Source of the DNA: Escherichia coli
GTDB taxonomy: Bacteria > Pseudomonadota > Gammaproteobacteria > Enterobacterales > Enterobacteriaceae
DNA length: 64,000 nt
Direction: 5' to 3' (one strand)
Assembly: GCF_003334765.1 (NCBI RefSeq)
Contig: NZ_QOWT01000007.1
Positions 46,375 through 48,805 of the stretch are shown piece by piece; position 1 is the stretch's first letter, and the number at the start of each line of letters is the position of its first letter. The position numbers and the translations under genes are program-made. The notes beneath the pieces are model-generated. The model saw only the letters and a list, made by a program, of their open reading frames with translations, searched no databases and had not been told where the DNA came from.

Positions 46375-47991
46375 ATGCTCAGTCAAATTCAACGCTTTGG
46401 CGGCGCGATGTTCACGCCAGTGCTGCTGTTTCCCTTCGCCGGGATTGTGGTGGGTCTTGCCATCTTGCTGCAAAACCCGATGTTTGTCGGGGAATCACTG
46501 ACCGATCCGAACAGTTTATTCGCGCAAATCGTACACATTATTGAAGAGGGCGGTTGGACGGTATTCCGTAATATGCCGCTGATTTTTGCTGTCGGTTTAC
46601 CCATTGGCCTTGCTAAGCAAGCGCAGGGGCGTGCTTGTCTGGCGGTGATGGTGAGTTTCCTGACCTGGAACTATTTCATCAACGCGATGGGAATGACCTG
46701 GGGAAGCTACTTCGGCGTCGATTTCACTCAGGACGCGGTGGCAGGTAGCGGTCTGACAATGATGGCCGGGATTAAAACCCTCGATACCAGCATTATCGGC
46801 GCAATTATCATTTCCGGCATTGTGACGGCGCTGCATAACCGTCTGTTCGATAAAAAACTGCCGGTTTTTCTCGGCATTTTCCAGGGGACGTCTTATGTGG
46901 TGATTATCGCCTTCCTGGTGATGATCCCCTGTGCCTGGCTGACGTTGCTCGGCTGGCCAAAAGTACAAATGGGGATTGAATCTCTGCAAGCGTTCCTGCG
47001 TTCGGCGGGTGCACTTGGGGTCTGGGTTTACACCTTCCTCGAACGTATTCTGATCCCAACCGGTTTACACCACTTCATCTACGGACAGTTTATCTTTGGT
47101 CCGGCAGCTGTTGAAGGCGGCATTCAGATGTACTGGGCGCAGCATCTGCAAGAGTTCAGTTTGAGCGCCGAGCCGCTGAAATCGTTGTTCCCGGAAGGCG
47201 GTTTTGCCCTGCACGGTAACTCAAAAATCTTTGGTGCCGTGGGCATTTCTTTAGCGATGTACTTCACTGCCGCACCGGAAAATCGGGTAAAAGTGGCGGG
47301 CTTGCTGATTCCCGCAACCTTAACCGCCATGCTGGTGGGAATTACCGAACCGCTGGAATTTACCTTCCTGTTCATTTCACCGTTGCTGTTTGCGGTACAC
47401 GCCGTGCTGGCGGCCTCAATGTCGACCGTAATGTATCTCTTTGGTGTGGTGGGCAACATGGGCGGAGGTCTGATTGACCAGGTTTTACCGCAAAACTGGA
47501 TCCCGATGTTCAGCAACCACGCGGATATGATGCTGACCCAAATCGCCATTGGGTTGTGCTTTACCCTGCTGTACTTCGTGGTTTTCCGCACACTGATTCT
47601 GCAGTTCAACATGTGCACGCCGGGACGTGAAGATGCGGAAGTGAAACTCTACTCAAAAGCCGAATACAAAGCCTCGCGAGGCCAAACCACCGCGGCAGAG
47701 CCAAAAAAAGAGCTGGATCAGGCTGCCGGTATCCTGCAAGCCCTGGGCGGGGTCGGCAATATCTCCAGCATTAACAATTGCGCGACGCGTTTACGTATTG
47801 CACTGCATGACATGTCACAAACGCTGGATGACGAAGTCTTTAAAAAGCTGGGAGCGCACGGCGTCTTCCGTAGTGGCGATGCCATTCAGGTGATCATTGG
47901 TCTGCATGTATCTCAGCTGCGTGAACAGCTCGATAGCTTAATTAATTCTCATCAATCAGCAGAAAATGTTGCCATTACGGAGGCAGTATAA
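46375..47991 (+). CDS. glvC: PTS alpha-glucoside-type EIICB component GlvC
   Basis: 538-aa continuous ORF from ATG 46375 with RBS aagagga; EIIC membrane domain plus C-terminal EIIB with CATRLR; track start 46114 is an extension. Confidence 0.78.
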
Positions 47992-48805
47992 TGACCAAAT
48001 TCTCAGTGGTTGTCGCAGGCGGTGGAAGCACCTTTACGCCAGGCATCGTGTTGATGCTCCTGGCGAATCAGGACCGTTTCCCGCTTCGTGCACTGAAATT
48101 TTATGATAACGATGGTGCGCGGCAGGAAGTGATTGCCGAAGCCTGTAAAGTCATCCTTAAAGAAAAAGCGCCGGACATTGCGTTTAGTTACACCACCGAT
48201 CCTGAAGTGGCATTCAGCGACGTTGATTTTGTCATGGCGCACATCCGCGTCGGCAAATACCCGATGCGCGAACTGGATGAAAAAATCCCGCTGCGCCACG
48301 GCGTTGTTGGTCAGGAAACTTGCGGACCCGGCGGAATAGCGTACGGCATGCGTTCCATTGGCGGCGTCCTGGAACTGGTGGATTATATGGAAAAATATTC
48401 ACCAAATGCCTGGATGCTCAACTACTCCAACCCGGCAGCCATTGTCGCAGAAGCCACGCGTCGTCTGCGCCCGAATGCGAAAATCCTCAACATCTGTGAC
48501 ATGCCAATCGGTATTGAAAGCCGGATGGCGCAAATTGTTGGGCTGCAAGATCGCAAACAGATGCGCGTGCGCTACTACGGCCTGAACCACTGGTGGTCGG
48601 CGATATCCCGCAGTTTCAGAAAGGGTTAATGAGTCAGCAAGTGGCGGTGGAAAAACTGGTCGTGGACGCCTGGGAACAGCGTTCATATCAGCACCTGTGG
48701 CAGGCGATTACGTTGTCGAAAACGGTACCGAGCGCCTCGGTCGCCAAAGCTATTCTGGATGAGTTGCTGGAGGCCAACAAAGCGTACTGGCCAGAGTTAC
48801 GTTAA
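47991..48805 (+). pseudogene. glvG: 6-phospho-alpha-glucosidase GlvG (GH4), disrupted
   Basis: N-terminal 212 aa with NAD-binding motif [13 protein letters not shown] ends at 48629; a GH4 C-terminal-like segment continues in another frame (48593-48805). Confidence 0.72.

Follow-up and report, generated by a model that had tools for sequence, protein, structure and literature searches.

The window analysed here is a stretch of 64,000 nucleotides from an Escherichia coli contig (NZ_QOWT01000007.1, assembly GCF_003334765.1). It contains the glv locus, in which the transporter gene glvC is intact and the hydrolase gene glvG is split between two reading frames. The features of the locus and of its two flanks are:

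45363–46079, minus strand: yidP, a divergent GntR-family regulator and presumed glv repressor, as annotated by RefSeq in the colinear loci of K-12 and O157
46375–47991, plus strand: glvC, an intact 538-codon PTS EIICB of the alpha-glucoside type, with no EIIA domain
47479–47481, plus strand: codon 369 of glvC, CAG (Gln) in the window and TAG (amber) in K-12 MG1655
47991–48629, plus strand: 5' fragment of glvG, 212 codons, of which 200 are genuine and the next 12, before the stop, are out of frame
48584–48591, plus strand: deletion junction, with one copy of GAACCACT left of the two that lie 508 bp apart in the intact allele
48584–48805, plus strand: 3' remnant of glvG, codons 368–440 with the stop, one base out of register with the 5' fragment
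48802–49695, minus strand: yidL, a convergent AraC-family regulator that overlaps the glvG stop, from RefSeq annotation

The glvC frame has no interruption between its annotated ATG at 46375 and the stop at 47989–47991, both in the list of open reading frames and in the raw sequence. Pfam finds complete PTS_EIIC (residues 10–346) and PTS_EIIB (residues 453–482) domains in one chain, and the protein matches NCBIfam TIGR02005, the model for alpha-glucoside EIICB proteins, over profile positions 1–524 of 524 with 954.7 bits (cutoff 607.3). The first-pass annotation, which was made from the letters of the window without database searches, had called glvC a continuous 538-codon EIICB, and it was right. 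There is a single amino-acid difference, P238Q, between this GlvC and that of O157. No EIIA domain was found in GlvC with Pfam; crr, for the EIIA-Glc/Crr partner, is located outside the window. GlvC falls in the same EIICB subfamily, TIGR02005, as the transporters of the Klebsiella AglA/AglB and Bacillus GlvC(MalP)/GlvA systems. Unlike AglB and GlvA, the hydrolase encoded in the window is truncated and, judged from its sequence, would be unable to serve as the working member of such a system.

The start of glvG at 47991 overlaps the glvC stop (TAATG). Its 212-residue product has a Pfam Glyco_hydro_4 match (PF02056) at residues 6–184, covering model positions 2–182/183 with E = 5e-67. The 5' fragment keeps the NAD-binding Rossmann domain, with GGGS at residues 10–13, and also CDMP (Cys-Asp-Met-Pro) at residues 169–172 and His200, which is the last genuine codon before the junction; residues 1–200 differ from the O157 protein by one substitution. 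A second frame is open from 48518 to the stop at 48803–48805, and codes for glycoside hydrolase family 4 (GH4) sequence from 48584 on. The 73 residues of this 3' remnant (368–440) match the C-terminal end of the intact O157 protein residue for residue and give a weak NCBIfam match to positions 359–429 of a GH4 model. A single reading frame of about 440 codons is absent – there is the 212-codon ORF, and the 73-codon remnant in the other frame. The genuine GH4 residues in the window thus number 200 + 73 = 273, versus 440 in the intact protein. This is the arrangement that had been read from the letters alone: a gene that opens with a GH4 NAD-binding motif, stops after 212 codons and continues as a GH4 C-terminus in another frame to 48805, with about 280 residues in place of about 440.

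The missing part was mapped by pairwise alignment of the window with the intact allele of strain O157:H7 FRIK944. There is one gap, of 508 bp, after position 48583, with the repeat GAACCACT at both of its edges, and no other insertion or deletion; the remaining differences are base substitutions, 23 across 46375–48805. Since 508 = 3 × 169 + 1, one deletion accounts for both the approximately 169 missing codons and the change of frame. The 440-codon O157:H7 allele, an example of the intact-glvG strains with which the first-pass annotation had suggested comparison, confirms through this single gap that glvG is disrupted in the window. That annotation had proposed a frameshift plus an internal deletion of roughly 150–170 codons. 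The size of the loss and the change of frame both stand, but the alignment reduces the two supposed lesions to one 508-bp event.

The intact E. coli GlvG of 440 amino acids has two Pfam domains, Glyco_hydro_4 at residues 6–184 and Glyco_hydro_4C (PF11975) at residues 195–415. It is 89% identical to AglB of Klebsiella pneumoniae (6DUX) and 73% identical to GlvA of Bacillus subtilis (1U8X), and the alignments to both are free of gaps across 437–439 residues. Because the intact protein aligns without gaps to these two solved enzymes, the long form is ancestral and the window allele is the deletion. A comparison with GH4 enzymes such as GlvA had been proposed as a way to map the gap; at the protein level, comparison with the intact O157 enzyme places the residues missing from the window allele at 201–367.

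The deletion takes out about 76% of the GH4 C-terminal domain. A complete PF11975 domain is not present in the window, and the NTYLKYY region, with the YLKYY motif at residue 263 (Tyr263), is gone. Across the 169 residues spanning the lost segment (201–369), the enzymes of E. coli, Klebsiella and Bacillus all agree at 107 positions. In B. subtilis GlvA, Cys171, Asp172 and His202 are reportedly metal ligands and acid, and Tyr265 the catalytic base (Rajan et al. 2004; Yip et al. 2007), and the lost part of glvG presumably contains the equivalent of this Tyr265. The residue types at the E. coli positions implied by these GlvA assignments agree. The first-pass annotation had singled out the Cys-Asp-Met-Pro region as part of a full catalytic domain in one frame; the Cys-Asp-Met-Pro itself is retained, but with most of the C-terminal domain lost there is no complete GH4 catalytic domain in any frame. 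A functional 6-phospho-alpha-glucosidase from the window locus would not be credible, and the activity has presumably been lost.

The glvG sequence and the deletion junction are the same in the window as in the glvG pseudogene of strain K-12. The 2,431 bp of 46375–48805 are one base apart from MG1655 – position 47479 is C in the window and T in K-12. In K-12 the T makes codon 369 an amber TAG, and the gene is divided into 'glvC' and 'glvB'; with CAG at this codon, the window has a continuous 538-codon EIICB. An exact 67-mer for the K-12 amber allele was found in 348 genomes, and the best 40 of these 348 are almost all laboratory K-12 derivatives. This distribution makes the glvC/glvB split a lesion separate from the deletion, seen in this comparison almost entirely in laboratory K-12. 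A naming effect was also observed: the NCBIfam model NF007255, a 161-residue equivalog named 'PTS sugar transporter subunit IIB', matches GlvC residues 378–538 (47506–47988), and this stretch coincides exactly with what follows the amber codon in K-12, where it forms the 'GlvB' fragment. RefSeq calls the whole 538-residue EIICB 'subunit IIB' probably because of this match to the K-12 'GlvB' part. The labels 'glvB' and 'PTS sugar transporter subunit IIB' both stem from a broken gene.

The intact operon of E. coli strains O157:H7, IAI39, HS and ATCC 8739 has the same position between yidP and yidL and the same gene order as in the window. Its flanking DNA is about 99% identical to that of the window, and its GlvC is one residue different. 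In these strains, unlike in the window, the 508 bp are present and glvG encodes a 440-residue enzyme with both GH4 domains.

The truncation of glvG is already known, as a catalogued pseudogene polymorphism of E. coli. RefSeq annotates glvG as a frameshifted pseudogene in K-12 and in other carriers. At least 1,000 contigs encode the exact 212-residue product, which NCBI and UniRef name '(putative) inactive 6-phospho-alpha-glucosidase'. Abe et al., citing Reizer 1994, describe the aglA and aglB homologues of K-12 as apparently cryptic or truncated (PMC5309279), and glvC' serves as a neutral pseudogene integration site (PMC3467084). What is added here is the exact lesion, one 508-bp deletion between 8-bp direct repeats, and a species-wide census of the locus in its three states: the deletion (about 2,640 genomes), the segment kept (about 1,650) and the block absent (about 1,140).

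The census was made in 5,426 complete E. coli genomes. A megablast search with 46375–48805 found the locus in 4,280 of them; many of the matches span 2,939 bp rather than 2,431 bp, and these longer matches are annotated '6-phospho-alpha-glucosidase'. About half of the genomes (2,642 of 5,426, K-12 among them) contain the exact 74-base junction of the window, and a 500-bp stretch from within the deleted segment was found in 1,653 of 5,426. A third state is found in the approximately 1,140 genomes without a glv match. With a 5.7-kb query from yidE to yidK, the yidP-glvC-glvG block was seen to be missing, with yidE abutting yidL, for example in strains 536 and Nissle 1917. This state was assigned to phylogenetic group B2, in agreement with an earlier comparison in which glvC was among the functions specifically absent from that group (Touchon et al. 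2009, PMC2617782). Carriers of the deletion include K-12 (group A) and SE11 and O111 (both B1).

No difference in the gap was seen among the 14 deletion alleles that were examined in detail (the window and 13 others). In a neighbour-joining tree of 27 sequences the alleles of the locus prove to be recombinant mosaics, and those with the deletion are not grouped in a single clade. A single origin of the deletion followed by recombination is favoured because the junction is identical among carriers; recurrent deletion at the same 8-bp GAACCACT repeats is a possible alternative. Some deletion carriers have a nonsense codon, Q406*, in the 3' remnant of glvG (13C1079T and M1, and two more by annotation), which is continued decay of the pseudogene. 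In strain HS-02 the junction 74-mer matches as two pieces over 100 bp, which suggests a small extra insertion or duplication at the glvG junction. As a separate observation, strain 1332KP has a TnpB-encoding element within an otherwise undeleted glvG, an independent inactivation of the gene.

The sequence of glvC was compared between the 14 deletion alleles and 13 intact alleles, a small sample of 27 sequences that are not phylogenetically independent. Changes in glvC private to deletion carriers are 8 nonsynonymous, including one nonsense, to 7 synonymous, versus 9 to 68 in the intact set (Fisher p = 0.0008). For singletons, with one divergent intact strain excluded, the ratios are 8 nonsynonymous to 4 synonymous in deletion carriers and 5 to 18 in intact strains (Fisher p = 0.024). 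Independent lesions of glvC were also found in deletion carriers: the K-12 amber codon, one inserted nucleotide in NCTC9082 and IS5 in CFS3292. The direction of these differences is consistent with relaxed constraint on glvC once glvG carries the deletion. At the same time, 11 of the 14 deletion alleles retain a full-length glvC, and in some the encoded GlvC is the same protein as in strains with intact glvG, which means either that decay is slow or that some constraint persists. A scan of 45900–49000 found no site matching the sigma-70 consensus, where 2.2 would be expected by chance, which is weak evidence on expression. Terminator-like hairpins in 45900–49000 occur at chance level only. From the missing consensus promoter together with the signs of relaxed constraint in glvC, it seems more likely that the transporter is silent or decaying than that it actively loads the cell with sugar phosphates that cannot be hydrolysed, the scenario drawn in the first-pass annotation.

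The explanation held with high confidence is that the window carries a decaying alpha-glucoside operon, in which one 508-bp deletion killed glvG and glvC now appears to be drifting. The operon would have consisted of the yidP repressor, the glvC PTS EIICB permease and glvG, an NAD+/Mn2+-dependent GH4 6-phospho-alpha-glucosidase. The 508 bp between the two GAACCACT octamers would have been lost in an ancestor shared by many E. coli of groups A and B1, K-12 included, probably by slipped-strand or microhomology-mediated deletion between these 8-bp repeats. The loss of codons 201–367 and of one further base would have shifted the frame, and the product would be a 212-residue stub, an NAD-binding domain that lacks most of the C-terminal domain needed to complete the active site. 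With its partner enzyme gone, glvC would then drift towards inactivation, a state that K-12, with its amber codon 369, has already reached. On this explanation the glv locus is a small, clean example of stepwise operon decay.

The main competitor to decay is that glvC has been kept for a role independent of GlvG – uptake of a sugar whose phosphate is processed by another enzyme, or sensing or regulation – so that the locus is a remodelled, functional system. The retention of full-length glvC in the window and in most of the sampled deletion carriers, the GlvC proteins identical to those of intact-glvG strains, and the very common occurrence of the deletion allele (about 2,640 genomes) all speak for such a role. 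However, private and singleton changes in the glvC of deletion carriers are enriched for nonsynonymous ones, glvC has been disrupted three independent times among these carriers (K-12, NCTC9082 and CFS3292), and there is no consensus sigma-70 promoter upstream. Group B2, moreover, lacks the whole block and has nothing in its place. A GlvG-independent role for glvC is considered quite unlikely. A related proposal is that the deletion has reached about half of the species because the loss of GlvG, or the possession of GlvC without GlvG, is advantageous rather than neutral. The advantage might be that a costly or toxic gut alpha-glucoside pathway is avoided, or that GlvC keeps a GlvG-independent function in transport or sensing. 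As a corollary, strains with intact glvC and glvG (O157:H7, HS and B-lineage strains) could use alpha-glucosides that K-12 cannot, such as methyl-alpha-glucoside or sucrose isomers. This proposal of selection is regarded as unlikely.

Two further readings concern the lesion itself. An in-frame internal deletion combined with an independent frameshift would also leave two fragments of glvG in different frames, but relative to the intact allele there is exactly one gap, its 508 bp are not a multiple of 3, and all else is substitution; this single gap rules out a two-lesion history, to which hardly any probability is given. The split could also have come from an error of sequencing or assembly, or the long allele could be a derived form that gained an insertion. 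The same junction recurs in 2,642 complete genomes, each assembled independently, which speaks against an artefact, and the long allele matches the solved AglB and GlvA end to end with no gaps, which speaks against an insertion. The junction census and the gap-free alignment together rule out both, and the probability left to them is negligible.

The two regulators that flank the locus vary as well. The best NCBIfam matches of yidP are GntR-family models, all of them under their curated cutoffs. In some strains with intact glvC and glvG (RM9513 and MIN14) yidP is annotated as frameshifted, which could derepress the glv operon. On the other side, yidL marks the downstream edge of the variable yidP-glvCG block, as yidE directly adjoins yidL in B2 strains. 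Downstream of an intact glvG, yidL is cut to a 75-bp remnant in TKEC21-59 (locus 3236–3539) and in HS (locus 4511–4585); in TKEC21-59 the remnant is followed by an IS200/IS605 tnpA fragment. The shortened yidL is thereby one more structural variant of the glv locus.

A second deletion between short repeats lies beyond yidL. Relative to K-12, the window is missing 159 bp between two copies of CTGGCGGC, at 51509–51524 (junction after 51516). The loss takes roughly 20 codons from the end of yidK and 34 from the start of yidJ, which encodes a sulfatase-like protein, and yidK runs out of frame into yidJ to give an ORF of 650 codons (49862–51814) versus 571. A 74-mer across the yidK/yidJ junction is matched at ≥99% identity in up to 1,355 of the 5,426 genomes, a count that includes some undeleted alleles matched as two pieces and indicates a common allele. 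Apart from this 159-bp deletion, there are only three substitutions (47479, 50488 and 55529) between the 21.5 kb of 42473–63914 and K-12 MG1655. By this comparison of sequence, the strain of the window is very closely related to K-12 but distinct from it.
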